DNA of 64,000 nt from Candidatus Woesebacteria bacterium (GTDB taxonomy: Bacteria; Patescibacteriota; Microgenomatia; UBA8517), in assembly GCA_016432525.1 (NCBI GenBank), contig CP066693.1, forward strand, positions 482,732-546,731. Direction: 5' to 3'. Under the pieces are notes generated by a model. The model did no database searches, was not told where the DNA came from, and was given only the letters and a program-made list of their open reading frames with translations. How positions within the stretch are numbered: the stretch's first letter is position 1; each line of letters begins with the position of its first letter. This document shows, piece by piece, positions 29,686 through 64,000 of the stretch. The translations under genes and the position numbers were made by a program.

Positions 29686-29689
29686 GAGT

Positions 29690-37749: not shown

Positions 37750-37811
37750 GATTATGGGTAATTATATACTGTTTTGTGTGATAAAATACATAAGTTTGTT
37801 TTATGTAGTTT
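37750..37811. promoter_or_regulatory. Divergent promoter region between the minus-strand methyltransferase (37749) and the plus-strand GT4 (37812).
   Basis: This 62-bp AT-rich spacer is the only sizeable non-coding gap between divergent genes. It contains a TGTGATAAAAT extended -10-like element. The call rests on position only; the genome is AT-rich, so such hexamers occur by chance. Confidence 0.25.
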
Positions 37812-41023: not shown

Positions 41024-41040
41024 AACTGTTATATACTAAA

Positions 41041-41532: not shown

Positions 41533-41533
41533 T

Positions 41534-42472: not shown

Positions 42473-42505
42473 AGTATAAACTGAATTATAATACAATATC
42501 TAAAA

Positions 42506-46426: not shown

Positions 46427-48508
<2,082 letters not shown>

Positions 48509-49981: not shown

Positions 49982-51723
49982 AAATAATTGGACTTACATG
50001 TCACTACACGGGAAATCACGATAATTCAGCTGCGCTTTTAATCGATGGCAAAATCGTGTTTGCCGAAAGCGAAGAAAGAATTACAAGAATTAAGCACGAC
50101 AGGCAATTTCCAATTAAATCTATTAAACATAATTTAAAATATAAAAAACTAAAAATCTCTGACATTGACTATTTCGCCTCAGCTTCACCTCCAACCAATC
50201 TCGGAAAGTTACTTTCACATTATTTTAAAGGTTTCACTTACACTTCAACATTAGAATTTTTTCGCTGGACTCTAGGTCGAAGTCTTCAGATGATATCTTC
50301 AAATAGTCAAAATAAAAATTCACATATACCTAATACTTACTATGAAACCAACTTACCAAAAAAGAAGTTAGTTTTCATATCTCATTATCTCGCTCATGCA
50401 GAAACCGCTTACGTCTTTTCAGAAATGGATAAATGCTTAATTGTTGCTTGGGATGGCTATGGTCTCAATGAAGATGGTTCACCTCTCTGCGGAAGTATTT
50501 ATTTGGGTCAAAATGGAGAATTAACACTTTTGGAAGAAATTCCAATATATGCATCTCTTGCTCTTTACTATGGTGCAGTAACCATCGCCCTAGGTTTTAA
50601 ATTAAATGATGGTGAAGGAAAAACAATGGGACTTGCAGTTTATGGGAAAGAAAGTCCTGCAGTAAAAGAGATTAGAGACATCTTTCCTTATTTCGATGGT
50701 AAAAAATGGATTCCTAGAAGTAATTGGTTGGAAGTAAACAGTGTCTCAAGGACTGAATTTTTTAAAAAAACCTCAACTTATAAAAAAATAAAAAAATTAA
50801 TAGATATGTACGGAAATCAACAAATTGCATTTGCAGCACAAAAAATTTTGGAAGTAGAGGCAGAAAAGTTCTTCAGATATTTGGTTAAAAAATATCAGGA
50901 GAAAAATATTGCTTTAGCAGGGGGGATTTTTCTAAATGTGAAATTTAATATGAAACTTCTCGAAAATAAAATTGCAAAAAAACTTTTTATATATCCAAAT
51001 CCAGGGGATGGTGGGGTGGCAGTTGGTGCAGCACTCGCTCTTTATAAAAAGCTAGGTAAAAAAATTCCTGTAGTGGGAATGAATAATGTTTATCTTGGTT
51101 GTGAGTACAATAAAAATGAAATTAAAAAAGAACTTAAAAAATTTAATAAAAAAATTGTATTTATTGATTTGGCTGACAAACTACCAAAAACAATAGCTAG
51201 TCACGTTGCAAATGGCAAGGTGGTCGGTTGGTTTCAGGGAAGAGGAGAATGGGGGCCAAGAGCATTAGGAGCAAGAAGCGTTTTGGCTGATCCAAGATTT
51301 ATTGAAACAAAAGACAGGATTAATTCAAAACTAAAACAAAGAGATTGGTTTATGCCTTTTGCTCCAGCAATATTGGAAGAATTTTCAAAAAAAGTTCTAG
51401 TCCATAATTTTGGAACCCCTTATATGACATTAACTGATGACGTCAAAAAAAATGTCGCCAAAAAAATTCCTGCTGCAATTCATATTGATAACACTGCTAG
51501 ATCGCAAATTGTTAACAAAAAAACAAACCCGCTTTATTGGTCGGTAATCAATGAATTCAGAAAACTAACAGGTATTCCAGTGATTTTAAATACAAGTTTT
51601 AATAAACACGGGCTTCCAATTGTCCATTCACCCAAAGAAGCAATAGAGCATTTAATTTGGGGTTGCGTGGATGAACTAGCAATAGGTCCTTTTTTGGTAA
51701 TCAAAGCCTCTAAAAAGAAATAA
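49978..51723 (+). CDS. Carbamoyltransferase (NodU/CmcH/NovN/TobZ family).
   Basis: The N-terminal Carbam_trans_N pattern is KIIGLTCHYTGNHDNSAALLIDGKIVFAESEERITRIKHD...HYLAHAETAY...VAWDGYG. The C-terminal carbamoyltransferase motifs are GGIFLNVKFN, GDGGVAVGAAL, GRGEWGPRALGARS, RDWFMPFAP and ILNTSFNKHG. Confidence 0.8.
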   Translation: MKIIGLTCHYTGNHDNSAALLIDGKIVFAESEERITRIKHDRQFPIKSIKHNLKYKKLKISDIDYFASASPPTNLGKLLSHYFKGFTYTSTLEFFRWTLGRSLQMISSNSQNKNSHIPNTYYETNLPKKKLVFISHYLAHAETAYVFSEMDKCLIVAWDGYGLNEDGSPLCGSIYLGQNGELTLLEEIPIYASLALYYGAVTIALGFKLNDGEGKTMGLAVYGKESPAVKEIRDIFPYFDGKKWIPRSNWLEVNSVSRTEFFKKTSTYKKIKKLIDMYGNQQIAFAAQKILEVEAEKFFRYLVKKYQEKNIALAGGIFLNVKFNMKLLENKIAKKLFIYPNPGDGGVAVGAALALYKKLGKKIPVVGMNNVYLGCEYNKNEIKKELKKFNKKIVFIDLADKLPKTIASHVANGKVVGWFQGRGEWGPRALGARSVLADPRFIETKDRINSKLKQRDWFMPFAPAILEEFSKKVLVHNFGTPYMTLTDDVKKNVAKKIPAAIHIDNTARSQIVNKKTNPLYWSVINEFRKLTGIPVILNTSFNKHGLPIVHSPKEAIEHLIWGCVDELAIGPFLVIKASKKK

Positions 51724-51747
51724 TTTTTATGTTATACTTGTGCCGAT

Positions 51748-53523
51748 ATGAACGTATTAGGAATTTATAACGCTCACAATGCAACTGCCGTTTTAGTTAA
51801 AGATGGAGTAATAGTGGCTTGTGTTTCTGAAGAAAGATTCACAGGTAAAAAAAATCAATATGGTTTTCCAAAACACGCCATAGATTATTGTATCTCTCAA
51901 GCAAAAATTAAGTCTTCAGATATAGATTTAGTTGTTATCCCTTTTAAATATGGACCTCCTCAACATTCACTTCGAGAAGAAAATCGCGATCTCAAACTGA
52001 ACTTTTTTTTAAACATTTATAAAATCGTATCAGTTGTAAGAAAAGAATGGGGTGAATTGGCTTACAGATACCCAGACCTAATACCAATAGGCAAATGGTC
52101 GTTTAGGACAGCATCTATTATTTTTGAAAAATTCCACATGGCAAGTGAGAGAAAATACGTTGCTGATTATTTAGGAATTTCTGTTAATAAAGTAATAAGC
52201 GTTGATCATCATTTATCGCATGCAGCATCTGTTTATTTTAGTTCACCTTTTAGTGGAGAAAAAACTTTAGTTCTAACTCTTGACGGAGAAGGTGACTTCA
52301 AATGTGCAACAGTTTCAATTTTTGACCAAAATAAATATAAAATTTTAGCCACTTCTGATCGCGAGCATTCTCTCGGATATGTTTATCAAAGATTAACCGA
52401 AGTTTTGGGAATGAAAGCAAATGAACATGAATATAAAGTAATGGGTTTAGCTCCTTACGCAAAAGGTGATGAAATCAATAAAATTTACGACAAGATAAAA
52501 AATATAGTTTATCTAGATCCCAAAAATCGCCTAATTTTTAAATCAAAATTTAATACAGTTGATACAGATAAATTTTTAGAAAGAGAATTAAAAAGAGTAA
52601 GATTCGATATTTTAGCAGCAGCATTTCAAAAATTTACTGAAGACAAGATAGTTGAATGGGTCGATTACGCGGTCAAAAAAACTAAAGCCAAAAAACTACT
52701 CCTTTCCGGTGGGGTATTTATGAACATCAAGGTTAACCAAAAAATTGCAGAATTACCAAGTGTTAAACAAATGTTTGTAATGCCTTCTTGTGGTGATGAA
52801 TCAACTCCAATTGGAGCCGCTTTTTTGGGATATATGAAATTAGGTAAACAAAGTCAACTTAAAAATTCTATTCTTAAAAATTTATATTTTGGACCAGAAT
52901 TTGGAAATAGTGAAGTCGAAAAAATCATCAAATCTAAAAGACTTACTAGGAAGTATAAGGTAATTCGTTCTCGAAACATTGAAAAGACAATTGCAACTCT
53001 TCTAGCAAAGAAAAAAATTATAGCAAGAGCTTCGGGTAGAATGGAATTTGGAGCACGAGCTCTTGGTAATAGATCGATAATGGGTAACCCAACTGACCCT
53101 TATGTAGTAAGAAAAATAAATGACCAAATCAAAGGCCGTGATTTTTGGATGCCTTTTGCTCCAACAATTCTTTGGGAGAGAATGCAAGATTATATTATAA
53201 ATCCCAAAAAGATAGAGTCTCCGTATATGATGATGGGCTTTGTTACAACAGAGCTAGCCAAAAAAGAACTTACTGCAGCACTTCATCAGTATGACTTTAC
53301 CGCAAGGCCACAACTTTTAAAACAAGAAGCAAATCCTAAATACTACAAAATTATAAAAGAATTTGAAAAAATAACAGGAATTGGAGGAATCTTAAATACC
53401 TCATTCAATTTGCATGGTTTTCCAATTGTTCTAGGTCCAGTTGAAGCTATAAACACATTTGAAAACTCTGGACTCGAGCACTTGGCACTCGAAGACTATT
53501 TAATATCCAAAAAAATTTCATAA
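51748..53523 (+). CDS. Carbamoyltransferase (NodU/CmcH family). It is the second tandem copy.
   Basis: NVLGIYNAHNATAVLVKDGVIVACVSEERFTGKKN...HHLSHAASVY...LTLDGEGD, GGVFMNIKVN, SCGDESTPIGAAFLG, GRMEFGARALGNRS, RDFWMPFAP and ILNTSFNLHG. Confidence 0.8.
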   Translation: MNVLGIYNAHNATAVLVKDGVIVACVSEERFTGKKNQYGFPKHAIDYCISQAKIKSSDIDLVVIPFKYGPPQHSLREENRDLKLNFFLNIYKIVSVVRKEWGELAYRYPDLIPIGKWSFRTASIIFEKFHMASERKYVADYLGISVNKVISVDHHLSHAASVYFSSPFSGEKTLVLTLDGEGDFKCATVSIFDQNKYKILATSDREHSLGYVYQRLTEVLGMKANEHEYKVMGLAPYAKGDEINKIYDKIKNIVYLDPKNRLIFKSKFNTVDTDKFLERELKRVRFDILAAAFQKFTEDKIVEWVDYAVKKTKAKKLLLSGGVFMNIKVNQKIAELPSVKQMFVMPSCGDESTPIGAAFLGYMKLGKQSQLKNSILKNLYFGPEFGNSEVEKIIKSKRLTRKYKVIRSRNIEKTIATLLAKKKIIARASGRMEFGARALGNRSIMGNPTDPYVVRKINDQIKGRDFWMPFAPTILWERMQDYIINPKKIESPYMMMGFVTTELAKKELTAALHQYDFTARPQLLKQEANPKYYKIIKEFEKITGIGGILNTSFNLHGFPIVLGPVEAINTFENSGLEHLALEDYLISKKIS

Positions 53524-53526: not shown

Positions 53527-55188
53527 GTGTTTAAGCACCTTACCAAATCTCACATAATTTGGCCATTTTTATTATTAATCCTAACTACACTATTAGTTTT
53601 TGGTAGTGTAACAAAAACATTTTACCAACAGGATGAATGGCATGGGTTGGGAGACGTCTTGTCTCTAGGCTTTAATTCTGTATCTATAACAATAGCAGGG
53701 CCTATTAGCCTTTTATTTGGAGGAGGAAGGCTCTTAAGTAATCTCCTTGTTTACTTCTTTTATAGTCGTTATCCATTTAATCTTTTACCAATTTCCTTGA
53801 CTATTATTTTTTTACACGCCGTGGATTCTATTTTGGTTTATCTATTAGCTTACAAATTTACAAAAAAAGTTATTCCTTCGTTTTTGGGGGCTATTTTCTT
53901 TATTATTAACAGTGTTTCTTCTGGCTCTGTCATCTGGCCAGCATCGGGACTATCTACTCTTCCTTCTATTTTTTTTATTCTCTTATCACTGCTATATTTC
54001 TTAGAGTATTTGGCTAAGAACAAAAAGAGGTTACTTATAATTACGTTTGTTTGTCTTTATGTATCACTTTTTTTTAAAGAAACTGCTGTCCCTTTATTTT
54101 TCTTACTTCCTCTATCATCTTTACTTTTCAAAAAAATCCCTTTTAAAAAATTTATTAAAATTTATTGGATATTTTTCTCTTTCAGTTTTCTGTTGATATT
54201 TTACAGACTTATACAATTTGAAAACATTACTACTAAACAAGACTTGTTTATTACAGGAGCTTCAAACTCGGTTCCTCTAACACTAGTAGTTCGTGCAATA
54301 ATGTATCCACTTACTTCTTTCTCTTTAATCTATATTCCTTCTGAAACGATTTTGACCATAACAAAACATATCACTTGGGTATATTACCCGTTTTTTCCAA
54401 AAGATCTATATGACCTAGTAGCGCAAACAGCTATTTTGGATATCCTAGCTTTATTTGCTTCTTTTTTTATCTTCACTCTTCTTTATTTCTTATTTAAGAA
54501 AGCTAAGTCCGTTACAAAAAAATATATAATCTTTGTAACTATCTTAATTTTGCTATCTTATCTTCCTTATATAATAATAAGCAAAAGCTATTCATATTTA
54601 GAGTCGCGTTACTACTACACTGCTGCTATCGGAGCAGGTCTTCTTATTGCATTATGTGTCAAAAGAATTTTAGATCTAAAAAAAACAAAATTATTCGCTT
54701 TACTGTTTTTGCTAATACCTTTTTATTATCTGCATCTAAAAATTATTAGCAGTCAAATCGATATTCAAGTATCAAGAAGTCAAGAACGTCTACAAATTTT
54801 AAATAATTTTTTAAAAGAAACGCCATTTTTGGACAAAAAAACAATCTTTTATATTTCAGGAAATCAAGTACACTATGTTTCAGAAGGAAATTATCTACCC
54901 ATGCAGCAGGGAATGGGCTATACACTTTTGGTCTGGTATGAAGCACATCAAAAAGCTCCTGCAGAGTTGTTGCCTTTTATAAGGGATCACTATCTTTGGG
55001 AACTAATAGGAGGCCAAGGATATAAAGAAATAAATGGATTTGGTTTTGGATACTTTTGGGATTTAGAAAAACTGAAAGAAGTAGTTTTTAAAAACAAACT
55101 TACAAAGGATAATATTCAGGCATTTTATTATGATTCAGAAAAAGAGGAATTAAAAAACATTAAAGATGAAGTACTCAAAAAACTATGA
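53527..55188 (+). CDS. Polytopic membrane protein (hypothetical, possibly GT-C-like).
   Basis: 553 aa with about 12 TM helices. The early loop has YQQDEWHGLGDV. It has a C-terminal soluble region of about 150 aa. Confidence 0.4.
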   Translation: MFKHLTKSHIIWPFLLLILTTLLVFGSVTKTFYQQDEWHGLGDVLSLGFNSVSITIAGPISLLFGGGRLLSNLLVYFFYSRYPFNLLPISLTIIFLHAVDSILVYLLAYKFTKKVIPSFLGAIFFIINSVSSGSVIWPASGLSTLPSIFFILLSLLYFLEYLAKNKKRLLIITFVCLYVSLFFKETAVPLFFLLPLSSLLFKKIPFKKFIKIYWIFFSFSFLLIFYRLIQFENITTKQDLFITGASNSVPLTLVVRAIMYPLTSFSLIYIPSETILTITKHITWVYYPFFPKDLYDLVAQTAILDILALFASFFIFTLLYFLFKKAKSVTKKYIIFVTILILLSYLPYIIISKSYSYLESRYYYTAAIGAGLLIALCVKRILDLKKTKLFALLFLLIPFYYLHLKIISSQIDIQVSRSQERLQILNNFLKETPFLDKKTIFYISGNQVHYVSEGNYLPMQQGMGYTLLVWYEAHQKAPAELLPFIRDHYLWELIGGQGYKEINGFGFGYFWDLEKLKEVVFKNKLTKDNIQAFYYDSEKEELKNIKDEVLKKL

Positions 55189-56254
55189 CATTGCAATTAT
55201 TGGAGCAGGTTTCTATGGTTGCGCTTTAGCTCTTTTTTTTGCAAACAAAAATTTGAAAGTAGCTCTCTTAGAAAAAGAAAAAGATTTACTAGAAAGAGCA
55301 TCTTATAAAAACCAAGCTAGAATCCACAATGGTTATCATTATCCAAGACATTTTATTACAGCTCTTCGATCTCACTTAAATTATGAAAAATTTATCAAAG
55401 ACTTCGATTCCGCCGTTTACAAAGATTTTAAGCAATACTACGCAATTGCTAAAATTTCCTCAAAAACAAACGCACGTCAATTCTTAAAATTCTGTGAGCA
55501 TGTTGGTTCCTTTATAAAACCTGCTTCACAAGTAATTAAAAATTATTTTAATAATCGACTGGTTGAAGATGTTTTTGAAGTTGAAGAAAGAGTTTTCGAT
55601 GCAGGTAATATGAGAAAAATTTTAAAAAAAGAGTTATTTAAAAAAGTGAAAGTTTTTTACGATTGTGAAGTTGCAAAAATAGAAAGACACAAAGATAAAA
55701 TAATCCTCCTCACAAAAAATTCAAAAACTTTTACAGCCACTCAGGTTTACAACTGCACATACTCACAAATTAACAAAATTCTATCTCAATCAGGTTTAAA
55801 CATTTTGCCTTTTAAACATGAATATATTGAAATGCCATTAGTCAAAGTACCAGATGAATTCTCCAAGATAGCTGTAACAATTTTGGACGGCCCTTTTTTT
55901 GGTTTTTTGCCATTTCCAGATACCAAAAACCACTCCCTATGGCATGTTCGATACTCAATACATACCAACTGGACTGACCCACAAGAAGATAATTTAGAAG
56001 ATAAACTTCTAGATTATTCCAACAAATCTAATTATCAATTCATGTACAAAGATGCAAAACGATATATCCCAATCTTAAAAGATATGAAATTTGAACAGTC
56101 ACTTTTTGAAACAAAAACAGTTCTTTTGGATAAAGAAGAAAACGATGGAAGGCCAATTCTTTATAAAAAGAATTATGAAATACCAGGGTTCCATGTAGTT
56201 ATGGGCGGAAAAATTGATAATATCTACGATATCATTTACGAAATCGAGCATTGA
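55166..56254 (+). CDS. FAD/NAD(P)-binding oxidoreductase (Rossmann-fold).
   Basis: The N-terminal beta-alpha-beta dinucleotide motif is YDIAIIGAGFYGCALALFFANKNLKVALLEKE. No specific subfamily was assigned. Its 3' end overlaps the convergent argF-like gene by 23 nt. Confidence 0.5.
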   Translation: MKYSKNYDIAIIGAGFYGCALALFFANKNLKVALLEKEKDLLERASYKNQARIHNGYHYPRHFITALRSHLNYEKFIKDFDSAVYKDFKQYYAIAKISSKTNARQFLKFCEHVGSFIKPASQVIKNYFNNRLVEDVFEVEERVFDAGNMRKILKKELFKKVKVFYDCEVAKIERHKDKIILLTKNSKTFTATQVYNCTYSQINKILSQSGLNILPFKHEYIEMPLVKVPDEFSKIAVTILDGPFFGFLPFPDTKNHSLWHVRYSIHTNWTDPQEDNLEDKLLDYSNKSNYQFMYKDAKRYIPILKDMKFEQSLFETKTVLLDKEENDGRPILYKKNYEIPGFHVVMGGKIDNIYDIIYEIEH

Positions 56255-57149
56255 GAAGAAATATGATTAGTGCTTTTTGCGCATGAAGCCGATTTTCAGC
56301 TTCTTGAAAAACAAAAGATTTATTTCCATCAATAATTTCACTTGTTACTTCATTTCCTCGATAAGCAGGCAAACAATGCAAAAAGATAGCATTATTTTTA
56401 GCTTCCTTCATTAACTTTTTGTTAACTTGGTAAGGTTTAAAAATTTTAAGTCTCTTTTCCTTTTCTGCTTCATCACCCATACTAATCCAAGTATCAGTAA
56501 TAACTACATCTGCATTTTTAACTGCTTTAATTGGATCAGTTAATTGAATCGCTTTAGATTTTGCCAATATTTTTTTGTTCATCTCATATCCTTTGGGTGC
56601 TGCACATTTAAATTTCATTTCAAGAATTTGACATGCAAGTGCAAAAGAGTGCACCACATTATTTTCGCAATCCCCGACATATGAAATATTCAAGCCTTTA
56701 AGTTTCTTTTTTACCTCTCTTATCGTCATCAGATCAGCCAAAATTTGGCAAGGATGTTCCATATCAGAAAGTCCGTTAATAACTGGAACGCTTGAATTTT
56801 TTGCAAGTTCCTCAACAATTTTATGGCTAAAAGTTCTAGCCATAATAATATCTGCCATTCTGCTGGTCACTTTGGCAATATCAGTAACTGATTCTCTTTT
56901 TCCCATGCTTATGTCTGTTGGTCCCAGATAAATTGCATGTCCTCCAAGTTGAGTCATTCCAATCTCAAATGAAAGACGGGTACGAAGAGATGGTTTTTCG
57001 TAAATCATAACCAAAGTTTTACCGTCTAGAATTTTTTTATTTTTACCTTTTGTTTTTAATTCACGCTTCAATTTATCTGCCAAATCCAAAACTTTAACAA
57101 TTTCCTTTGAAGAAAGATCGCTTATTGAAACAAAATGCCTTAATTTCAT
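56232..57149 (-). CDS. argF: Ornithine carbamoyltransferase (OTC family, ArgF/ArcB-like).
   Basis: The carbamoyl-phosphate binding motif is SLRTRLSFE (the STRTR equivalent). The ornithine-binding motifs are HPCQ, DTWISMG and FLHCLPA (HCLP is diagnostic of OTC versus ATCase), plus FQEAENRLHAQKA. Confidence 0.85.
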   Translation of the reverse strand: MKLRHFVSISDLSSKEIVKVLDLADKLKRELKTKGKNKKILDGKTLVMIYEKPSLRTRLSFEIGMTQLGGHAIYLGPTDISMGKRESVTDIAKVTSRMADIIMARTFSHKIVEELAKNSSVPVINGLSDMEHPCQILADLMTIREVKKKLKGLNISYVGDCENNVVHSFALACQILEMKFKCAAPKGYEMNKKILAKSKAIQLTDPIKAVKNADVVITDTWISMGDEAEKEKRLKIFKPYQVNKKLMKEAKNNAIFLHCLPAYRGNEVTSEIIDGNKSFVFQEAENRLHAQKALIIFLLNARFRK

Positions 57150-57173: not shown

Positions 57174-57950
57174 TCAAGGGTTGTAAAAACCTAATACAAT
57201 TTTAAAAATATTTAATAAATCATTTATTTTTTTCCAACCAACTATTTTTGTTGGAACTTCTCCCTTAGGATAATTTCGTGTAGTCGGAATCTCTTTTGAT
57301 TTAAGCCCTAATCTGTTAGCACGAGTCGTCATGTAAAATAATAATTCATATCTTTGAAATATATCTCTGAAGGGTTTAACTCCTGGATGAAGTAGATAAT
57401 CTTTACTGTACGCACGAAATGCAAGTGGGGTATCGGTATACCATTTTCCAGCTGCCAGGCTTAAAACCGGTGATATTACAAACCTGTTAAAAAAAATCCT
57501 GTCTGAAGGGGTATTTTTATGTTTTCCTCCTTTCAGAAATCTAGAAGCTTGTGCATAATCACATCCTTCATCTAATGCCTTTATAAATAAAGGAATTGCT
57601 GATACATCATCTTTATTATTACCATCAATTGTAATAATACCCTCATATTTTTGTTTCAAAGCCCAAGCAAGTCCTGCTCGCATCTGAACTGATTGACCTC
57701 TTGGAGTATTTATAACTGCTCGTAATCCTTGTCTTTTCAGAAACGTCTTATTCGTTGAGCCATCAGTGCTTCCTCCATCAACTAATATGATATCAACCAT
57801 TTTGGAATATTTTTTCATTTTCTGGAGTTGATCTTTAATTCTCTTACCTTCATTTAAAACTGGAGTAATAAGGGAATATTTATTTCTTTTTTTAAAAAAT
57901 TCGTTTATTTTATATTCTGGCACTTGCCAAGATTTAGGATCTAATTTCAT
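57174..57950 (-). CDS. GT2 family glycosyltransferase.
   Basis: YSLITPVLNEGKRIKDQLQKM...IILVDGGSTDGS...AGLAWA...IITIDGNNKDD...QASRF. Confidence 0.6.
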   Translation of the reverse strand: MKLDPKSWQVPEYKINEFFKKRNKYSLITPVLNEGKRIKDQLQKMKKYSKMVDIILVDGGSTDGSTNKTFLKRQGLRAVINTPRGQSVQMRAGLAWALKQKYEGIITIDGNNKDDVSAIPLFIKALDEGCDYAQASRFLKGGKHKNTPSDRIFFNRFVISPVLSLAAGKWYTDTPLAFRAYSKDYLLHPGVKPFRDIFQRYELLFYMTTRANRLGLKSKEIPTTRNYPKGEVPTKIVGWKKINDLLNIFKIVLGFYNP

Positions 57951-57965: not shown

Positions 57966-59384
57966 TTATTCTTGTACTAAATGAAGATGTTTACCACTCA
58001 GTGTCTCGGCTAGTAGTTGAACTCCATCACTACCAACTTTTTGCTGCATTATCCTCTTATCCTTGAATGAAGAAACTTTGTTGGGGTGCAACTCATTTAA
58101 TTTTTGTAATCCAGCATACCAAAATGGAACTTCAACTTGCTTTACTTTTAAGCCTTTATGTAATGCCAATACGACACCATAAACTTGTGCGTTCATCCAA
58201 CTATCTAGTATTTTTGGATCTATCTGTTCTCCTCCGGCAGGTTTAAATCTCCTTGTAAATAGTTCAACCACCGCTGGATTGTTTTTGAATGCAATCAATC
58301 CTGAATAAAGATCCAAATCTTCTTCCCCGTCTTTTAATATCCCATTGTTTCGTAGATGCTCATTCATTTGACGATTTGTTTCGTTTTCTATAGTAAATCC
58401 GTAATCTGGATAAGATGCTTCAAATTCTTGTGATCTTCTCTTGCCAACGACTACGTCTGCTTGAGACTGAAGAAGTAATTCAACGTGTGCGGGTATATGT
58501 GTAATTGAGTCAACTTTCTCAGGTTCTATTCTAAAAATGTACTTAACTCCATTGATTTCCGATGCTGCTTCTATCGCTGCCTTTTTTTGTTTGGCAAAGT
58601 TAGACATATCTTTATCATTAACAATAGTGACATTTCTGTATATCTTCAGCTCTTCTAAAAAAGGATTTGAACTTCCAGTATCTGCGATTATAACTCTATA
58701 TCCATGGTGTGCTGCTTCACGAATTAAACCTAAAGCCAGATACCCCCTAGTTCTTGTCTCGTTCGACAAATCAATATTTCCTGGCGTCCAGTCTTTATAT
58801 TGAGTTGCAATACAAACCGCTACTTCATCTGGGTTGAATATTTCTTTTACGTCAGGATTTTTAATAGTTCTTCCTTCTCCTGTTTTGATTCCTCTTGCTG
58901 TTAGAGTTGCTTTCTCGTCTCCTAAATTAGTTGTTTGATGAATTGTGTACGGAGGGATGACAACTTCTTCGCCTGGATTTCTAAGCAGAACGGCTCGCTC
59001 TGTTCTTGTTAATGGATAAAGCAAATCTGCTCTTACCTTTACTCCTCCACTTTCTTTAGGTACACCAATTGTTTCTTCCATTCCTTCGTGAAGTTCTGCT
59101 GTTAACTCTTCTCTTGGACTTAGATCAAATTCTTGAGAAAAAATTTGCTCTCCAATTTGCGCTTCCTTGTTCAAAGGAGCGATCTCTCTTTTGTTTGCGG
59201 AAGCTACTTTATCAATAAGAGAAAAATTTTTCCAAATTGACTGCTCAATGATTTCCTTAGTTCTAGCAGCACTCTCTCTTATTCCTGCTATATTTTCTTG
59301 AAGTCTCCCTGTTCTTTCTATACTCATGGCAGTATGGTAAATGTTATTCCAAAACTTGTCAATGAGCGTATACTTCATTAACAA
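57966..59384 (-). CDS. Hypothetical protein, possibly a divergent GT-A-fold nucleotide-sugar transferase-like enzyme. Its base composition is atypical for the window.
   Basis: 472-aa ORF whose GC content and codon usage are visibly higher than the surrounding AT-rich genes. One segment (KYIFRIEPEKVD...ADVVVGKRRSQEF) loosely resembles the GT2 DxD...DVVxGSR region, but with EPE in place of DxD. No TM helices. The start is uncertain (26-nt overlap with the upstream gene). Confidence 0.35.
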   Translation of the reverse strand: MLMKYTLIDKFWNNIYHTAMSIERTGRLQENIAGIRESAARTKEIIEQSIWKNFSLIDKVASANKREIAPLNKEAQIGEQIFSQEFDLSPREELTAELHEGMEETIGVPKESGGVKVRADLLYPLTRTERAVLLRNPGEEVVIPPYTIHQTTNLGDEKATLTARGIKTGEGRTIKNPDVKEIFNPDEVAVCIATQYKDWTPGNIDLSNETRTRGYLALGLIREAAHHGYRVIIADTGSSNPFLEELKIYRNVTIVNDKDMSNFAKQKKAAIEAASEINGVKYIFRIEPEKVDSITHIPAHVELLLQSQADVVVGKRRSQEFEASYPDYGFTIENETNRQMNEHLRNNGILKDGEEDLDLYSGLIAFKNNPAVVELFTRRFKPAGGEQIDPKILDSWMNAQVYGVVLALHKGLKVKQVEVPFWYAGLQKLNELHPNKVSSFKDKRIMQQKVGSDGVQLLAETLSGKHLHLVQE

Positions 59385-60174
59385 ACTTTAATGTTTTTTC
59401 TATTTGTTCCAAATGTTTAATATCTGGACCAAGAGGCATCTCTATAGATACCCAGTCCTTATAACCTGAATTTTTTAAGGCATTTGATACTTTTTTGTGA
59501 TCTGTTTCCTCAGTCGGAATTGGTTTTAAGCCTGGTTCGCTTATGTGATAATGGTGAGTGTAAGGAAGCGCTTGAATAATTGTTTTAAGATAATTTTCTT
59601 GATTTATAGTCATGGTGCTTGTGTCCAAATGCACACAAAAGTTTGAATTATTTACCTTTTTAACTAATTTAATTGCTTCATCTGTTGTATTTATAAAATC
59701 AGTTCCATAGAGTGGAGGATTTGGTTCAATTCCGAAGTAAATATTACGTTTTCTTGCAATTTTAGAAATTTTCCCAAAAAACTCAATAGAGATTTTTTCT
59801 ACCTCTTTTTTAGATTTACCATTTGTTACTCTATTTTTTGGAGATCCAAAAACCATGGCCTTTGCACCAAGTTTTACTGAAAGCTCAATCATTTTAGATA
59901 AATAGCTAAAAGTTTCGTTTTTTGCTTTTCTATCAGCGAAAATCTGAAGTTCAGGGTGACCAAAAAGTAGGGAAGTAGTAGCAACTATTTCAATCCCATT
60001 TTTTTTCCAAAAATTCTTACACTTATTAATTTTAGCGTCAGTTACTTCAACTGGATCTTGCCAAATTTTTGATGCAGCTATTTCAATGGCATTTATATTA
60101 TATTTTTGAAGTAATTTTAAAACTTTGCTATCTTCTGAGTGGTCCCATGCTAAATTTGAAATTGCAATTTTCAT
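59359..60174 (-). CDS. Sugar phosphate isomerase/epimerase (xylose-isomerase-like TIM barrel).
   Basis: IAISNLAWDHS...NAIEIAASKIW...GAKAMVFGSP...YFGIEPNP...CVHLDTSTM matches the AP_endonuc_2 / xylose isomerase-like TIM barrel motifs. Confidence 0.6.
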   Translation of the reverse strand: MKIAISNLAWDHSEDSKVLKLLQKYNINAIEIAASKIWQDPVEVTDAKINKCKNFWKKNGIEIVATTSLLFGHPELQIFADRKAKNETFSYLSKMIELSVKLGAKAMVFGSPKNRVTNGKSKKEVEKISIEFFGKISKIARKRNIYFGIEPNPPLYGTDFINTTDEAIKLVKKVNNSNFCVHLDTSTMTINQENYLKTIIQALPYTHHYHISEPGLKPIPTEETDHKKVSNALKNSGYKDWVSIEMPLGPDIKHLEQIEKTLKFVNEVYAH

Positions 60175-60950
60175 TTCCCAAGTTTTTTTCTTTCATTGAC
60201 TATAAACTCTTTAATTTCTTTAAGTATTTGGGATCTGTGATAAATATATTCATCTTTTGATCCATACAATTTTCCATATTTAGTTCTAAAATCAAAAACC
60301 AAAGGTGGTTTTTCAGTAATATTTTTAAAATTTACATTAAGTGAATATTTTGCAATTTGGCAGGCTGTTACAGACTCTGTCGCAAAATTGATAAGTTTTA
60401 TTTTATTTTTAATTGCAATTTGAATGTCTCTCCATATATTTTTTAAGTGATAAAACTGCATTAAGGTATCTTTATGCGTAAAATCCAATGCGTTGTCAAA
60501 AATTAAATCATAAATAAAATTCTTTTTTAAACCATCACCGTATAATTGAGGACACCTGATAATTGTCACGTCAGAAAAATTCCTTTTAATAAATAACTCC
60601 ATCTTATATCTATGTTTACCATAGGCCTCTTTTAAGTCCAAAAATTTAATTTTTGTATCTTCATTTATTCCTACTTTGTTTGGATAAACATCAACAGTAG
60701 AAATCAAAATAAACTTCTTTGTATTTACTTTCGAAAGATTATCTAAAAGTTTTTTAATCCCTTTCCAATCATCTTTTGGTTCTTGATTTGCCTTCCATCT
60801 TAAAGCAGAAGTTGCTGCACTAACAATTAAGTCATATTTTTTGCCTTTAATATCTTCAATATTTTTCGAATTATATAAATCGTCAAAATGATACTGTGAA
60901 AGCAAATTCGACCCCACAAATCCCGTGTAACCTATTAGCGCTGATTTCAT
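60171..60950 (-). CDS. NAD(P)-dependent sugar epimerase/reductase-like protein (short, RmlD-like).
   Basis: N-terminal Rossmann motif ALIGYTGFVGSNL. The 259-aa size and ISTVDVYP pattern resemble dTDP-4-dehydrorhamnose reductase-like proteins. It overlaps both neighbours by 4 nt. Confidence 0.45.
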   Translation of the reverse strand: MKSALIGYTGFVGSNLLSQYHFDDLYNSKNIEDIKGKKYDLIVSAATSALRWKANQEPKDDWKGIKKLLDNLSKVNTKKFILISTVDVYPNKVGINEDTKIKFLDLKEAYGKHRYKMELFIKRNFSDVTIIRCPQLYGDGLKKNFIYDLIFDNALDFTHKDTLMQFYHLKNIWRDIQIAIKNKIKLINFATESVTACQIAKYSLNVNFKNITEKPPLVFDFRTKYGKLYGSKDEYIYHRSQILKEIKEFIVNERKKLGK

Positions 60951-61945
60951 ACTATATTAAGAGTCTTTCTTTTAGGCAGAATAGTAGATCTATTAATTTC
61001 CTCCGAAACAAAATAAAAAGGCTCATCTCTTGATTCAATGAGAATTCTAATTACATACTCCGATATTAAGGTAAGTAGAGAAAACAATATAAAAAACAAT
61101 GTTCCAATTACAGTCGAAGTACTAATCCATCCTTGGGGTGCTAAATGTTTCATTCCAAATACTAGTATTAATATTACAACCCCTAAAACATACAAAAGAA
61201 ACAGGAAACTTAAAAATAATCCAAGGAAACTGACTATTCGAATAGGTTTAAAAGAATTTGAAATTATTGTGTCAGCTGTACCCAAAACTACCTCACTTAT
61301 TTTCTGTTTACTTAACTTATATTTATATGTTCGAATTTGTCTGTAGTAAATGATTTGCTTTTTAAAACCTACCAAATAATTTATGTAACTAAAATGTCTA
61401 CTCTTGCGTCTAGTACTAACTATTGAATTTATCACTTTTCTATTTAGTGCCATAGTAAAATTAAACCCATGACGAAAGCCATGGCTAGAAATTTTCTCAG
61501 TTAGCCAAAGAAAAATTTTACTTACAAAATCGTAACTAACAATATCTTTATTGCATTTTGCAACGACTACATCATTACCTTCCTCAATTTTATCTAATAA
61601 GCTAACTACGATTTCAACAGAATCTGTGTAAAGGTTAAAAAGTATAGCGCTATCCCCAATACAGTTATCTAGTCCAGCAGTCAAGGCTATCTCATTGTCA
61701 TACTTTTTTGAAAGAACCAAAATTCTTGTGTAAGGAATGATATTTTTTAATTTTTTTATTTTATCGATAGTATTATCGGAAGAGTTATTATCAACAATCA
61801 AAATCTCATAATTAGTTCTAAGTTTGGATAAAATTTTTTTAATTTCCTTAAGTCTCTTTTCAATAATATCCTCATCGTTATTTGTTACAGCTATCAAAGA
61901 AATTATCTTGTCACTTAACCTTAATTTCCTAGACTTTTTGTCCAT
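60947..61945 (-). CDS. GT2 polyprenol-phosphate glycosyltransferase (GtrB-like) with a C-terminal 2-TM anchor.
   Basis: ISLIAVTNNDEDII...ILIVDNNSSDNT...LTAGLDNCIGDSAILF, then two C-terminal TM helices (IRIVSFLGLFLSFLFLLYVLGVVILILVFG; VIGTLFFILFSLLTLISEYVI). The ATG was confirmed at 61943-61945 (reverse complement). Confidence 0.6.
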   Translation of the reverse strand: MDKKSRKLRLSDKIISLIAVTNNDEDIIEKRLKEIKKILSKLRTNYEILIVDNNSSDNTIDKIKKLKNIIPYTRILVLSKKYDNEIALTAGLDNCIGDSAILFNLYTDSVEIVVSLLDKIEEGNDVVVAKCNKDIVSYDFVSKIFLWLTEKISSHGFRHGFNFTMALNRKVINSIVSTRRKSRHFSYINYLVGFKKQIIYYRQIRTYKYKLSKQKISEVVLGTADTIISNSFKPIRIVSFLGLFLSFLFLLYVLGVVILILVFGMKHLAPQGWISTSTVIGTLFFILFSLLTLISEYVIRILIESRDEPFYFVSEEINRSTILPKRKTLNIV

Positions 61946-61965
61946 TAGCCCCTATTATAGTAAAA

Positions 61966-64000
61966 ATGAGATTAACAGCAAGAGCCATAAGTTTCATTAA
62001 AAAAAATAAAATACTTTTTTTAGTTATTCTAATCGCCATAATCCTTAGATTTGTAGGATTGATGCCAAACATCCTTCACGCGGACGAATCTTATGTACAA
62101 GACCATTCTTGGGATTTGGTTAAAAATTTTATTGTTAGTCGCGACATAAATCCCCATACCTTTAAATATGGAACACTAATGTTTTATTTTCAGACAATTG
62201 GGGCTTTTCCAGTTTTAGTTGGAACCTATCTTTTAGAAATCGCAAATACACTAGTTTCGTCTACATTCACAGCCAAATGGTTAAGATTTGACTTATTTTA
62301 TGGCGAAGCAATACGTAAATATGTTATTCCCTTGGTAACAGTAGGAAGAGCAGAAACCGCTTTTTTTGGAGTAGCAAGTGTAATAGTTGTTTATTTAATT
62401 GGAAAAAAAATGTTCAACAAAAGAGTAGGAATTATCTCAGCTCTTTTCCTGGCAATAGCTCCGCTTCATACTCGGGACTCCCATTATATAACAACCGATG
62501 TTTTATCTGTACTAACCATTCTCCTCGCATTTTTAAGTTTTCTATATCTTTATAAGACCAAAAAATTAAAATGGTTTATTACATCAGGTATTTTGATGGG
62601 AATTTCTGTAACAGTCAGGTATTATCCAATTGCTATTTTTGCTTATCTTTCAGCGATTCTTTATAGCTTCGAAAAACAAAAAAAATGGTTTCGCAATATT
62701 TTGATTAGCTTCTTTTTCGTCTTGGTGGGGGTGTTTATCGGTTTACCATTCCTATTTTTGGATTCTCAAGGGCCCAAACTTTTTATTTCAGATTTACAAA
62801 AATACGCTTTGCCTTGGTACAGCACTCCAATCACCAATTATATTTTTTCTATCTTTGTAAGTATTATTTCGAAAGGTAAGGAAAGTCTCCCCAGTATTCA
62901 CCTTTTATATTCAATGCCGCATTCTTTCAGACCTGTTCATGCAAGTTGGATATTTTTTAACGCTTATGGAATACTTCCCACAATTTTAGCCATATTTGCA
63001 ATGTTTACATTAGCGATTAAATCCTTCAAAAAATTTATATTATTAGCATCTATTCCACTTATCAACTTCTTTTATATAAGCTATCTCATTCCAGCCACAT
63101 ACGAAAGGTTAATTATTCCAACATTGCCATTTCTAGCAATATTTACAGCAATCTGTTTAGAAAACTTATATCTTTTTTTAAAAGAACATTGGAGCAAAAA
63201 AACGACCAAGATAGCATTTCTAGTCTCAATTTTGTTGGTTAGCATATTGCCATTTTCAAAAGCCCTAGAAGCAAGTATTACCTGTAGTCAGGAAACAATT
63301 CAGAATCAAAGCTATGATTGGGTAAATAAAAGTATTCCTGAAAATGTAAATATTGGATATTTAACCATGGTAAGTATTCCTCCTAAAAAATTCGGCTGGG
63401 TTGCTCTCGAACCTGGACAAAAATTATCACTCGAAGAAGCTATGATTAGAAAAAACGACTATGCTTTCATAAACGCATCAAGACTCGACTATAATACATA
63501 TAACTATTTCAACAGTTTTTTTATTCCACCAGATAAAATATTCGAAAATTCCTATTATTCTTTGGTGATATCAGAATACGAATCAAGAGCAAAGGTTTTA
63601 GGTAGAGTTCAAAAACCATGGATGTGTGACGTCTCACGAATTTATTATTATCAGCTACCTCAATTAGCAAAAGAAGCAACAAAACTTATTAAAAATTTTA
63701 ATTTTGATTCCTCTAAAGATCTTGAATCTTGGCATATTACAATTCCAGATAACAGTGGTAAAGCAAATATAAATTTAACATCCGCAACAGGTAAACAAAA
63801 AAACGGATCGCTTATATATTTTCAAGATTCTTTTGCCTATACCGCACCAAGAATAGCAAGTAATAATCAAAAAATCTCTCCAAACAAAACTTACACTTTT
63901 TCTTTTTGGTCAAAAGTAGATAAAAATTCTGACGATCAATCTCCAACCGTAATTGCAAGGATAGATTTTTACAGCAGTATTAAGCCAACTGGATTGGAAA
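61966..64000 (+). CDS. PMT_2/ArnT-like GT-C membrane glycosyltransferase with a C-terminal soluble beta-sandwich-like domain. It is 3'-partial and runs off the window.
   Basis: Not in the supplied ORF track, because no stop codon falls in the window. I translated it by hand from ATG 61966 (MRLTARAISFIKKNKILFLVILIAIILRFVGLMPNILHADESYVQDHSWDLV...) and found no stop through 63999. It has the DE loop motif, about 12 TM segments and then a soluble region (SQETIQNQSYDWVNKSIPENVNIGYL...TYTFSFWSKVDKNSDDQSPTVIARIDFY). Confidence 0.6.
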   Translation, partial: MRLTARAISFIKKNKILFLVILIAIILRFVGLMPNILHADESYVQDHSWDLVKNFIVSRDINPHTFKYGTLMFYFQTIGAFPVLVGTYLLEIANTLVSSTFTAKWLRFDLFYGEAIRKYVIPLVTVGRAETAFFGVASVIVVYLIGKKMFNKRVGIISALFLAIAPLHTRDSHYITTDVLSVLTILLAFLSFLYLYKTKKLKWFITSGILMGISVTVRYYPIAIFAYLSAILYSFEKQKKWFRNILISFFFVLVGVFIGLPFLFLDSQGPKLFISDLQKYALPWYSTPITNYIFSIFVSIISKGKESLPSIHLLYSMPHSFRPVHASWIFFNAYGILPTILAIFAMFTLAIKSFKKFILLASIPLINFFYISYLIPATYERLIIPTLPFLAIFTAICLENLYLFLKEHWSKKTTKIAFLVSILLVSILPFSKALEASITCSQETIQNQSYDWVNKSIPENVNIGYLTMVSIPPKKFGWVALEPGQKLSLEEAMIRKNDYAFINASRLDYNTYNYFNSFFIPPDKIFENSYYSLVISEYESRAKVLGRVQKPWMCDVSRIYYYQLPQLAKEATKLIKNFNFDSSKDLESWHITIPDNSGKANINLTSATGKQKNGSLIYFQDSFAYTAPRIASNNQKISPNKTYTFSFWSKVDKNSDDQSPTVIARIDFYSSIKPTGLE

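Follow-up and report, generated by a model that had tools for sequence, protein, structure and literature searches.

A glycosyltransferase-like gene with a variant DxD motif and a rare N-terminal domain in a sugar operon of Candidatus Woesebacteria

The locus and its genes

We have analyzed a gene on the minus strand of a 64,000 nt stretch of DNA from Candidatus Woesebacteria, which we will call the window. The original prediction listed an open frame of 472 codons at 57966..59384. This ORF is genuine, although the best-supported coding sequence is shorter (Table 1). NCBI protein QQG47078.1, described as a "hypothetical protein" from a Candidatus Woesebacteria MAG, is identical to these 453 amino acids, and the orthologous protein at locus L001 (P0007) starts with MS.E where ATG 59327 stands. 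A second, independent assembly has yielded an identical gene call of 470 amino acids (P0167). The protein is formed by two modules: an N-module, which includes the first ~165 residues, and a C-module, from about residue 161 to 453. It is predicted to be soluble, with a maximum Kyte-Doolittle mean of 0.81 and a pI of 5.9; no hydrophobic segment suitable for membrane or interface helices is found with 19-residue windows.

Table 1. Position of the target gene, its modules and motifs, and the neighbouring genes in the window.
Feature	Position	Strand	Remarks
Main CDS, most likely	57966..59327	-	453 aa + stop; ATG 59327, NCBI start
Alternative upstream starts	ATG 59378 (470 aa, Logan gene call); TTG 59384 (472 aa)	-	
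N-module long alpha-helix, residues 3-48	59184..59321	-	AlphaFold2, pLDDT about 75-82
Putative small cupin-like beta region, residues ~59-146	58890..59153	-	Sub-threshold profile matches
Cupin motif-2-like G119-EEVVI-P125-P-Y127-TI-H130-QTT-N134	58926..58973	-	Regex
C-module, GT-A fold, GT2-like catalytic domain	57969..58847	-	Residues 161-453
D216, end of beta2, IIAD-TGSS (family consensus VVVDGGSS)	58680..58682	-	Presumed nucleotide-binding Asp
E268-P269-E270-K271, [E/Q]-P-E-K motif at DxD position	58515..58526	-	Alignment and model
R297 in DVVVGKR	58437..58439	-	90/90 sequences; equivalent to PfDPMS R117
GtrB/ArnC/PgfS-like membrane polyprenyl-phosphate glycosyltransferase homolog, FNLY for DxD	60947..61945	-	Operon partner
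Extended-SDR-like NAD(P)-binding protein	60171..60950	-	Pfam Epimerase 3.3e-9
Xylose-isomerase-like TIM barrel, ketose-3-epimerase / 5-keto-L-gluconate epimerase type	59359..60174	-	Pfam AP_endonuc_2 8e-26
Small soluble DPMS-like GT2, DGN at DxD site	57174..57950	-	Pfam GT2 4.7e-8; PDB 5mlz 1.2e-5
Ornithine carbamoyltransferase, last gene of minus-strand string	56232..57149	-	NCBIfam OTCase 1.9e-128, above cutoff

The minus-strand genes around the target are tightly packed or overlapping, and their order is conserved at loci L001 and L002. The gene had been placed between GT2 and sugar isomerase genes; its neighbours are indeed a small GT2 and a xylose-isomerase-like TIM barrel. The suggestion that it works with the adjacent sugar genes is supported by the conserved synteny, but the name "sugar-phosphate isomerase" does not hold: The TIM barrel is better described as ketose-3-epimerase / IolO-like. 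Its NCBIfam matches, IolO (2e-23) and psicose 3-epimerase (6e-19), are both under the equivalog cutoffs, and its PDB matches are TM0416 (7e-15) and tagatose 3-epimerases. The SDR-like gene is syntenic in L001 (63%) and L002 (56%). The GtrB-like protein matches PDB 5ekp over its full length (E 1e-22) and NCBIfam PgfS (3.4e-28), and its FNLY site is kept in the orthologs at both loci. The small GT2 is 83% identical in L001 and 67% in L002, and keeps the equivalents of R117 and R131 of the dolichyl-phosphate mannose synthase of P. furiosus (PfDPMS). All three GT-A proteins of the operon are devoid of a canonical DxD, with FNL-, EPE-, and DGN-type sites. This feature of the other two GT-A genes, the two-module make-up of the target, and its near-orphan N-module of ~165 residues were missed in the original prediction.

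The ornithine carbamoyltransferase, syntenic in L001, may supply carbamoyl phosphate to two NodU-type carbamoyltransferases at 49978..53523, which contain Carbam_trans_N/C domains. In all, the operon is coupled with a FAD oxidase, the SDR, the TIM-barrel epimerase, two O-carbamoyltransferases, and the ornithine carbamoyltransferase. The window also contains at least seven PMT/PMT_2 and two YfhO proteins, which are users of polyprenyl-phosphate sugars. No paralog of the target family is present in the window, only a weak GT2 cross-match at 13612..14409. Promoter and terminator scans are uninformative in this AT-rich genome, with consensus matches rarer than in shuffled sequences.

We have found nine further loci with members of this family (L003-L009 and L011-L014, some of them redundant). 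Many NDP-sugar SDRs, DegT aminotransferases, GT2/GT4, and PMT_2 GT-C genes are found in them. For example, the distant member at L005 lies beside inositol-phosphate and CDP-alcohol genes, and the member at L014 adjoins a ManC-type NTP_transferase, a PMM, and a MannoseP_isomer cupin. Since the neighbours of distant members vary, a single fixed substrate for the family is unlikely. At L009, a GT2 of 229 amino acids adjoins the family member, but it is only 30% identical to the small GT2 partner, and has not been counted as its ortholog.

Base composition and codon use

A GC content above that of the neighbouring genes had been noted, and this is correct: It is 0.371 in the target gene and 0.314 on average in the genes of the window (sd 0.024, z 2.4), and it reaches 0.36–0.38 in 500 bp windows over the gene. 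It is a modest outlier, expected about once per ~50 genes. It ranks third among 52 genes, after 19770..20324 (0.377) and 46427..47380 (0.372). The further claim of more G/C in third positions and a deviant codon usage has not survived. GC3 is ordinary (0.258, mean 0.233, z 1.0), and so is the leave-one-out likelihood of synonymous codons, conditioned on amino acid composition (z = -1.27, rank 8 of 52). The first codon position carries the excess (GC1 0.506, z 2.6 relative to the genes in the window). The protein is rich in E (9.6% vs 4.3%), and also in R, A, Q, G, and V, with less F, L, I, and K: The GC shift is due to its amino acid composition, not to a foreign origin.

It had been proposed that the gene could have been acquired horizontally, as its foreign GC and codon usage would show. 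The overall GC content, together with that of the 500 bp windows, is what speaks for such an origin. We consider it very improbable, and have rejected it. The distribution of GC among the three codon positions and the codon likelihood test point to native codon use, and the surplus GC is accounted for by amino acid composition. In addition, the orthologs in L001 and L002 are likewise GC1-high and GC3-low relative to their own neighbours. The position of the L001 ortholog in its operon is identical, and its identity to the target (62% in the C-module and 49% in the N-module) falls within the range of the flanking syntenic genes, 47.5–82.6%. No tRNA, repeat, or mobile-element gene flanks the target, and no RNA genes or tRNA, sought as island markers, are found in the 64 kb window. 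The gene is native to this Woesebacteria (CPR) genome, and vertically inherited in a sugar-coat biosynthesis operon. A compositional anomaly of this kind is a warning against calling horizontal transfer from raw GC in AT-rich genomes.

The two modules of the protein

The C-terminal 290 residues give a confident AlphaFold2 model with a GT-A fold, alpha/beta/alpha and Rossmann-like. In structure comparisons the best matches are all true glycosyltransferases, with a Z margin of ~5 above the best nucleotidyltransferase. Judging from this model, the nearest structural resemblance of the C-module is to GT-A enzymes of the "phosphate-acceptor" clade: GT2-DP dolichyl-phosphate mannose synthase, GT55, GT78, and GT81. 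In agreement with the previous remark that no glycosyltransferase family is easily called, the target is below the gathering threshold of Pfam PF00535 GT2 (14.2 bits, E 0.042, threshold 23.3; the C-module alone gives 15.4 bits), and it has no match in NCBIfam. The C-module belongs to a family with 272 representatives (50% clustering) and no curated model. PF00535 is matched by 20 of 71 family homologs at E <= 0.01 (best 1.2e-7), so the family is related to GT2, although the target protein itself is not callable as such. A comparison of the family with the adjacent GT2 using hhalign gives a probability of 78.7% (E 1.7e-5). PDB sequence searches with family profiles A1 and A3 give no credible match, the full-length target finds itself alone in a word-indexed homolog search, a GTDB genome scan gives a single distant match in Brevinema, and a metagenome scan with the close C-module subgroup finds nothing. 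The proposal of a divergent GT-A-like enzyme from a novel family is thus supported by the fold, by these representatives without a curated model, and by the EPE(K) motif.

This motif replaces the canonical DxD, which is absent, in the whole family. It is found directly after beta4 (263-266) in the model, and aligns to DGNN of the adjacent GT2, itself aligned to DADL of PfDPMS. An EPE in the DxD place of a GT2-like segment had already been pointed out; both model and alignment confirm it, followed by DVVVGKR. Among 90 aligned sequences, E268 is found in 76 (Q in 11, D in 2), P269 in 73, E270 in 87, and K271 in 88. The motif keeps two acidic side chains as Glu, so it should be considered as a DxD variant, not a loss. 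D216, which closes strand 211-216 of the model, is D in 84 of the 90 sequences, and S219 is kept in 82; from what is known of GT-A enzymes, D216 is presumed to bind the nucleotide.

The equivalence of R297 was established by transitive alignment, from the family R297 to R137 of the small GT2, and from there to R139 of the 5mlz chain (native R117). In PfDPMS, R117 is a ligand of the acceptor phosphate (PMC7185993). No conserved basic residue is found at the position of PfDPMS R131, and S135 likewise has no conserved counterpart; a longer HV2 with invariant E314 and N318 is found instead. The lack of conservation of R131 and S135, together with an invariant E314 in an enlarged HV2, argues against a simple phosphate acceptor. 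D339 and G343 (LDxFFGP) and E412 are also invariant, and are candidates for the xED base and G-loop; the C-terminal part has no conserved His. The GT2-DP clade is also devoid of the xED Asp (PMC7185993). A ~15-residue insertion with an invariant Arg-Gly (R194-G195) lies between beta1 and alpha1, and the glycine-rich loop GxGxR(L/M) of sugar-phosphate nucleotidyltransferases is absent after beta1, where the family has T-x-T-x-YP-x-W. R194, D216, E270, K271, R297, E314, D339, G343, E412, and R425 are conserved at 100%, or nearly so, in the 90 sequences: These active-site-like polar residues are under purifying selection.

The N-module is a different case. A profile search finds P0007 as its single relative, and a metagenome scan finds nothing. 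In L001 it is 49–52% identical and collinear with the C-module. This is the sole other copy of the fused gene, and it bears a frameshift. We have considered and rejected that L001 contains split genes: The downstream frame is open through beta1, but the first start codon in it is the Met which corresponds to residue 221 of the target, and this indicates a frameshifted fusion. A Rosetta-stone test with the standalone cupin genes near the family members at L003 and L014 detects no relation between them and the fused N-module.

AlphaFold2 gives no confident fold for the N-module, with pLDDT <50 for the cupin-like region in the model of the protein, and 39 for the N-module modelled with its one homolog. 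Its long helix might take part in oligomerisation or docking. The JmjC, Cupin_2, and GPI models and the structures of archaeal cupin-type phosphoglucose isomerases (cPGI) match the same stretch below threshold, independently from the target and from P0007. None of these profiles is significant: The best values are E 0.012 (JmjC, Cupin_2) and 0.02 (cPGI 1j3p), below cutoff and over ~26 residues. Cupin motif 2, G(x)5PxG(x)2H(x)3N, is matched except for a Tyr instead of Gly, and motif 1, G(x)5HxH(x)3-4E(x)6G, in part (E78-x-H80-x4-E85). The relaxed motif is unique in the 22,034 amino acids of the open frames in the window, and is found in 20 of 200,000 shuffles of the N-module in a post hoc test. 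E78, H80, E85, and H130, conserved in P0007, are candidate metal ligands. The N-module would then be a lineage-specific addition, formed by a long helix and a probable small metal-binding cupin-like barrel, which may bind or isomerise a sugar substrate, or mediate assembly.

Possible function and comparison with known systems

The gene codes for a glycosyltransferase-like enzyme, as yet uncharacterised, in which the metal-binding motif is altered and an additional N-terminal domain, rarely seen, is present. We consider it somewhat better than an even chance that this is a soluble cytoplasmic two-module enzyme, native to the CPR genome and co-inherited with a glycan operon, whose C-module is an active GT-A nucleotide-sugar transferase. 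Its most likely role would be in a pathway for a polyprenyl-phosphate-linked, carbamoylated glycan. D216 and S219 of the beta2 loop would hold the nucleotide; E270, with or without E268, would coordinate a divalent metal or the diphosphate, and the invariant K271 could help to neutralise the leaving diphosphate. R297 may contact the phosphate of the acceptor or the donor, and the invariant E314, D339, or E412 are candidates for a general base or for sugar ligands. The target would add or relay a sugar remodelled by the neighbouring SDR, TIM-barrel epimerase, and FAD oxidoreductase to a phosphate-bearing acceptor, most likely lipid-linked. The product would then be used by the many GT-C transferases of the PMT/YfhO type in the island, the presumed builders of a carbamoylated surface glycan. 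The non-canonical DxD and the unusual Lys next to it count against this reading, and so does the lack of helices for the membrane or its interface, which GtrB, ArnC, and DPMS possess. The varied neighbours of distant family members, the sub-threshold cupin matches, and the frameshift in the L001 copy also speak against it.

Some of the same residues could be read in another way. The missing canonical DxD, the invariant K271, and R194-G195 at the start of alpha1, which recall the phosphate-binding Lys/Arg of NTP transferases, would also suit a C-module acting as a sugar-1-phosphate or phospho-acid nucleotidyltransferase. The N-module, whose sole sequence lead is cupin-type phosphoglucose isomerase, would then be a cupin aldose-ketose isomerase, and both would activate a rare sugar from the TIM barrel, whose similarity to ketose 3-epimerases fits this scheme. 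Such a protein would resemble the bifunctional type II phosphomannose isomerase / GDP-mannose pyrophosphorylase with the domain order reversed, and the surroundings of the L014 member are suggestive in this respect. Nevertheless, L014 already has its own NTP transferase, the cupin evidence is below threshold, the GxGxR loop is missing, the top structural matches are true glycosyltransferases by the Z margin already given, and in sequence profiles the link of the family is with Pfam GT2, not with NTP_transferase. We regard this function as unlikely. A catalytically dead pseudo-glycosyltransferase seems quite unlikely. It would serve the small GT2 and/or the GtrB-like protein as a scaffold, chaperone, or regulatory subunit, like COSMC with T-synthase or the inactive partners in the EXT and CHSY-CHPF pairs. 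The loss of the canonical DxD agrees with this, as do the co-conservation with the adjoining small GT2 in the window, L001, and L002, and the aberrant DxD of all three GT-A proteins, which suggests a co-evolved assembly; COSMC is cited as a precedent in PMC7185993. On the other hand, ~10 polar or charged residues, at positions expected to line a GT-A active site, are invariant in ~90 divergent sequences (25–45% identity), including the two acidic residues of the DxD site, positions which pseudoenzymes usually relax, and many family members have neither a small GT2 nor a GtrB-like partner.

The reading as an active transferase may be extended, in a form which we hold to be rather doubtful. In it, the proteins with [E/Q]-P-E-K form a new glycosyltransferase family at the CAZy level, in which a Glu-Lys pair replaces DxD, with altered metal dependence or none. 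In this Woesebacteria lineage, the family would have captured a new small cupin enzyme domain, resulting in a bifunctional sugar isomerase/epimerase-transferase, in an assembly of three GT-A proteins where the DxD-less GtrB-like membrane protein is an anchor or presenter of lipid phosphate, not a catalyst.

CPR such as Woesebacteria give large fractions of their genomes to surface glycosylation, on which their episymbiotic lifestyle probably depends. The target marks a sizeable soluble GT-A family (about 270 clusters at 50% identity), not recognised by curated models and with a signature unlike the textbook DxD. The characterisation of one member would decide between metal-dependent and metal-independent transfer by Glu-x-Glu-Lys, and would bring annotation to hundreds of genes of glycan clusters now listed as "hypothetical proteins". 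The operon, with three GT-A proteins without a canonical DxD and their partner enzymes, is a compact test system for unusual lipid-linked sugars in CPR.

Several known systems may be compared with the target. In ManC/AlgA-type bifunctional enzymes of sugar metabolism, a Rossmann domain of GT-A-like type, which binds nucleotides, is found on the same polypeptide as a cupin domain. The target also has a GT-A-like domain and a putative cupin module in one chain, but in reverse order, and its Rossmann domain is GT2-like, not NTP_transferase; no sequence similarity to PF01050 or PF00483 is seen. The likeness to cPGI (P. furiosus 1qxj, T. litoralis 1j3p) is limited to L115-A140 of the N-module, which aligns to motif 2 of these enzymes, including the metal-ligand His (PPYxxHxxxNxGDE; PPYWAHRTxNxGDE in both species), with the motif-1-like sequence 34 residues upstream. 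The differences are the sub-threshold level of all matches (E 0.01–0.3), the replacement of the first motif-1 His by Glu, in addition to the Tyr in motif 2, and the lack of a confident fold.

Mannosyl-3-phosphoglycerate synthase (GT55, 2wvk/3f1y), glucosyl-3-phosphoglycerate synthase (GT81, 7p5l), and mannosylglycerate synthase (GT78, 2bo4) are, like the target, soluble and of a similar domain size. They are retaining GT-A enzymes with phospho- or carboxy-acid acceptors. GT55, GT81, and GT78 are placed in one phylogenetic clade with GT2-DP (PMC7185993). The setting of L005 recalls these enzymes. However, their identity to the target is 10–13%, and not even the family profile detects a similarity in sequence; they keep DxD, and no compatible-solute genes are found in the target window.

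The GT2-DP enzymes (P. furiosus DPMS 5mlz, GtrB 5ekp, ArnC 8vxh) share with the target the order of beta1, the beta2 Asp, the beta4 acidic motif, and D-[IV]-V-x-G/P-x-R, the Arg equivalent to PfDPMS R117, and a setting rich in GT-C enzymes which consume polyprenyl-phosphate sugars. They differ in the low identity (14–16%), the motif at the DxD site, the Arg-Gly insertion, the HV2 region with E314 and N318 in place of R131 and S135, the missed Pfam GT2 threshold, and the C-terminal transmembrane or interface helices, absent in the target. Soluble DPM1-type enzymes which rely on partner subunits exist, so the missing helices do not exclude a GT2-DP activity.

As for the motif itself, there are precedents among GT-A enzymes for a replacement of DxD without loss of activity, in some cases with charge neutralisation by basic side chains (PMC7185993; see also PMC3516806, PMC3961637, and PMC12595478). 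Examples are prokaryotic GT6 (NxN, metal-independent), GT14 (basic residues in place of the metal), GT27/GT60 (DxH), and WrtF. In the target family, the motif is followed by an invariant Lys.

Gene extent and base composition

The open frame predicted at 57966..59384 (-) does exist. It has 472 codons counted from TTG, and the same sequence is found in a deposited "hypothetical protein" of 453 aa (QQG47078.1 / HY044_02970, from a Candidatus Woesebacteria MAG, 916,571-bp contig) and in an independent Logan assembly. The start is called at ATG 59327 in the former and at ATG 59378 in the latter. The sole ortholog of the N-terminal part, P0007, begins with MS.E where our gene has ATG 59327, so we have taken 57966..59327 as the coding sequence; residues are numbered from this ATG.

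The original prediction described a GC-shifted gene with more G/C in third positions and a different codon usage. A modest rise in GC is present (0.371, compared with a mean of 0.314 in 52 long ORFs of the window; sd 0.024, z 2.4), but the gene only ranks third, as two others equal or exceed it. The rest of the description does not hold: the excess is found in the first codon position (GC1 0.506, z 2.6), GC3 shows none (0.258, mean 0.233, z 1.0), and synonymous codon choice is ordinary (z = -1.27, rank 8 of 52, by a leave-one-out likelihood conditioned on the amino acids of each gene). The product is a soluble acidic protein with no hydrophobic segment, while many proteins in the window are membrane proteins. 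Glu (9.6% vs 4.3%) is enriched in it, as are Arg, Ala, Gln, Gly and Val, whereas Phe, Leu, Ile and Lys are depleted; the GC excess follows from this make-up. The orthologs in two loci with a comparable neighbourhood, L001 (a JGI metagenome contig) and L002 (GCA_964394855.1), again have the highest GC1 (0.51–0.54) and a below-average GC3 relative to their own neighbours. This composition is therefore a property of the protein family.

Gene neighbourhood

The gene belongs to a packed, partly overlapping string of minus-strand genes.

Features of the window and of related loci
Feature	Position	Strand	Remarks
GtrB/ArnC/PgfS-like membrane GT2	60947..61945	-	full-length to 5ekp (GtrB), E 1e-22; orthologs L001:2-931, L002:11322-12311
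Extended-SDR-like protein		-	between membrane GT2 and TIM barrel
Ketose-3-epimerase / IolO-like TIM barrel		-	directly before the target gene
Target gene	57966..59327	-	
Small soluble DPMS-like GT2	57174..57950	-	adjoins the target gene; L001:4530-5318, L002:8948-9712
Ornithine carbamoyltransferase (OTCase), bona fide	56232..57149	-	end of string, after small GT2
DAO-family FAD oxidoreductase	55166..56254	+	divergent to string; kept beside operon in L001 and L002
Membrane protein, 553 aa			divergently transcribed next to string
Two tandem NodU/CmcH-type carbamoyltransferases	49978..53523	+	
Large glycosylation island	8213..44605	+	at least seven PMT/PMT_2 and two YfhO GT-C membrane proteins, 537-777 aa
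PMT/PMT_2 or YfhO GT-C proteins	20344..28818		several in tandem
Open frame at window end	61930..64000	+	at least 689 codons, runs off the window
Module junction in L001	L001:3640-3670		single-base frameshift
Extra ORF in L001	L001:2549-3028	-	159 aa, between TIM-barrel and N-module genes
Standalone Cupin_2 genes	L003:10204-10590, L004:4821-5207		128 aa
Standalone MannoseP_isomer cupin	L014:5226-5660		144 aa
Longer family member	L005:8001-9044		347 aa; also L006

The genes of L001 and their order are the same: GtrB-like GT2, SDR-like protein, TIM barrel, target, small GT2 and OTCase, then the FAD oxidoreductase, a membrane protein of about 550 aa and two carbamoyltransferases. In L002 the neighbourhood is rearranged and the homolog is standalone. 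Identity to L001 is 62% for the C-terminal module and 49% for the N-terminal one, within the range of the flanking syntenic genes (47.5–82.6%), and no tRNA, Rfam element or mobility gene has been found flanking the gene. Horizontal acquisition, which the modest GC rise had suggested, is ruled out by these identities together with the synteny, the ordinary GC3 and codons and the composition of the orthologs; we give it hardly any probability.

The window has nothing that corresponds to the extra ORF in L001, which has a clearly higher GC (0.438; GC3 0.431) and no Pfam match and may be a small insertion. The end of the window, seemingly free of ORFs, is a single open frame, missing from the ORF list because it runs past the boundary.

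The two other GT-A proteins of the operon also depart from the canonical DxD, the metal/nucleotide-sugar motif after strand beta4. The membrane GT2 has ILFNLYTDS where GtrB has IPIDADLQDPPE, and so lacks a DxD; N104, Y106, T107 and D108 are invariant in both orthologs. This protein may be an anchor without catalytic activity, or a polyprenyl-phosphate glycosyltransferase with an unusual mechanism. The small GT2 has TIDGNNKDD (DxN) at this site and keeps the equivalents of R117 and R131 of PfDPMS, the dolichyl-phosphate mannose synthase of Pyrococcus furiosus. No other gene of the operon is so well conserved (83% and 67% identity in L001 and L002). With EPE in the target, all three sites (FNLY, EPE, DGN) are therefore non-canonical.

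The carbamoyltransferase pair lies close to the OTCase, an arrangement conserved in L001, which suggests a local supply of carbamoyl phosphate for glycan O-carbamoylation. PMT/PMT_2 and YfhO GT-C enzymes, abundant in the glycosylation island, draw on sugars linked to polyprenyl phosphate. Another nine loci of the family are glycan clusters too: next to the family member there is typically an extended SDR, a DegT aminotransferase or both, PMT_2 is often present, and partner genes vary. The longer member in L005/L006 has neighbours concerned with lipid head groups (CDP-OH_P_transf, DAGK_cat, CarS-like CTP transferase, Inositol_P), a hint that the acceptors of some members are phospholipids or inositol phosphates.

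The two modules

An exhaustive HMMER scan of 1.84 billion representatives gives 272 relatives (E <= 1e-3). With few exceptions these are standalone, have about 300 aa and match only residues ~180-450 of the ORF, while the first ~170 residues have a single match, P0007 (176 aa). In L001, P0007 and P0002 (62% identical) are adjacent "genes", collinear with our gene at the DNA level. The junction reads IKNPEIKDIFDPHQ, two stops, then SSVVVCIATKYEKW after a 1-nt shift exactly between the modules, so a fused copy, the only other one, has been called as two genes. Either the assembly contains an indel here or the frameshift is real and recent. Downstream, the frame is open through strand beta1, and the first start codon in it is the Met at target residue 221. 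From this open frame and the collinearity we infer that the fusion is ancestral to a small subclade.

The almost orphan N-terminal module begins with one long helix (residues 3-48, AlphaFold2, moderate confidence); no model of residues 48-160 was obtained, either in the full-length run or with P0007 as only homolog. It contains G119-x5-P-x-Y-x2-H130-x3-N134, which is cupin motif 2 except for Tyr in place of Gly, and upstream E78-x-H80-x4-E85; all these residues are conserved in P0007. The JmjC, Cupin_2 and GPI Pfam models and the structures 1qxj and 1j3p, cupin-type phosphoglucose isomerases, match one same stretch, always sub-threshold (E 0.012–0.3), independently for the target and P0007. 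In a post hoc test, the relaxed motif appeared in 20 of 200,000 shuffles, and the open frames of the window (22,034 aa) contain it only once. Standalone cupin genes are found within a few genes of distant family members in L003, L004 and L014, the one in L014 also beside a ManC-type NTP_transferase and PMM; none has detectable homology to the fused module. Since the only lead is sub-threshold and these nearby genes are not detectably related, the module is described as possibly cupin-like, nothing stronger.

The C-terminal module (residues 161-453) is modelled at pLDDT above 90 (AlphaFold2, 23-sequence alignment). Foldseek places ArnC and GtrB first (E ~3e-7), which bears out the suggestion of a divergent GT-A-like enzyme. 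The sequence fits no callable glycosyltransferase family, as anticipated: Pfam GT2 is sub-threshold (E 0.04), NCBIfam gives no match, and there is no curated model of the family. PF00535 matches 20 of 71 relatives (best E 1.2e-7), and the profile of the family can be aligned with the adjacent GT2 (probability 78.7%). Family profiles match no PDB sequence. The top five Foldseek matches coincide exactly with "clade two" of a published GT-A phylogeny, in which the inverting polyprenyl-phosphate GT2 group (GT2-DP) is joined by the retaining GT55, GT78 and GT81; phosphate-linked acceptors are common to all of them (PMC7185993).

EPE does replace DxD: E268-P-E270 directly follows beta4 (263-266) and aligns to DGN of the adjacent GT2, which in turn aligns to DAD of PfDPMS. 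The family motif is [E/Q]-P-E-K, with E268 in 76 of 90 aligned members (Q in 11, D in 2), P269 in 73, E270 in 87 and K271 in 88. Also near-invariant in these sequences are R194-G195, at the start of alpha1 after a family-specific insertion of ~15 residues, D216 and S219 in the DGGSS loop after beta2, and D291, R297, P307, E314, N318, D339, G343, Q408, E412, R425 and Q428.

Putative role and comparison with known enzymes

The gene joins an almost orphan N-terminal module to a member of a GT-A transferase family in which a Glu-Pro-Glu-Lys site is conserved. No element is categorically new and the role is putative. On balance, we favour an active nucleotide-sugar transferase that would act on a remodelled sugar, in a pathway to a glycan linked through lipid phosphate. 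The metal or diphosphate would be handled by E270/E268 and K271, and R297 would touch a phosphate. A nucleotidyltransferase combined with an isomerase is an unlikely alternative, with isomerase structures among the sub-threshold N-terminal matches and ArnC and GtrB heading the Foldseek matches of the C-terminal module. The gene offers biochemistry a well-defined target in the synthesis of CPR surface glycans.

Replacement of DxD is tolerated in GT-A enzymes, as DxH in GT27/60, and its loss accompanies metal independence in GT14 and prokaryotic GT6; it can also mark a pseudo-enzyme, as in COSMC (PMC7185993). A pseudo-glycosyltransferase acting as scaffold for the neighbouring GT2s appears slightly less probable still: polar residues are so conserved across sequences only 25–45% identical that the family would seem to be active, not decayed. 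The active transferase may be compared with PfDPMS, whose R117 is an acceptor-phosphate ligand (PMC7185993) and has its counterpart in R297 by transitive alignment. On the other hand, our family conserves no basic residue at the positions of R131 and S135, and HV2, the region holding acceptor-phosphate residues in PfDPMS, is longer, with an invariant Glu. As to the sugar, a rare one could be made by an oxidise-epimerise-reduce route composed of the FAD oxidoreductase, SDR-like protein and TIM barrel; this would resemble DprE1/DprE2 in logic, not in homology.
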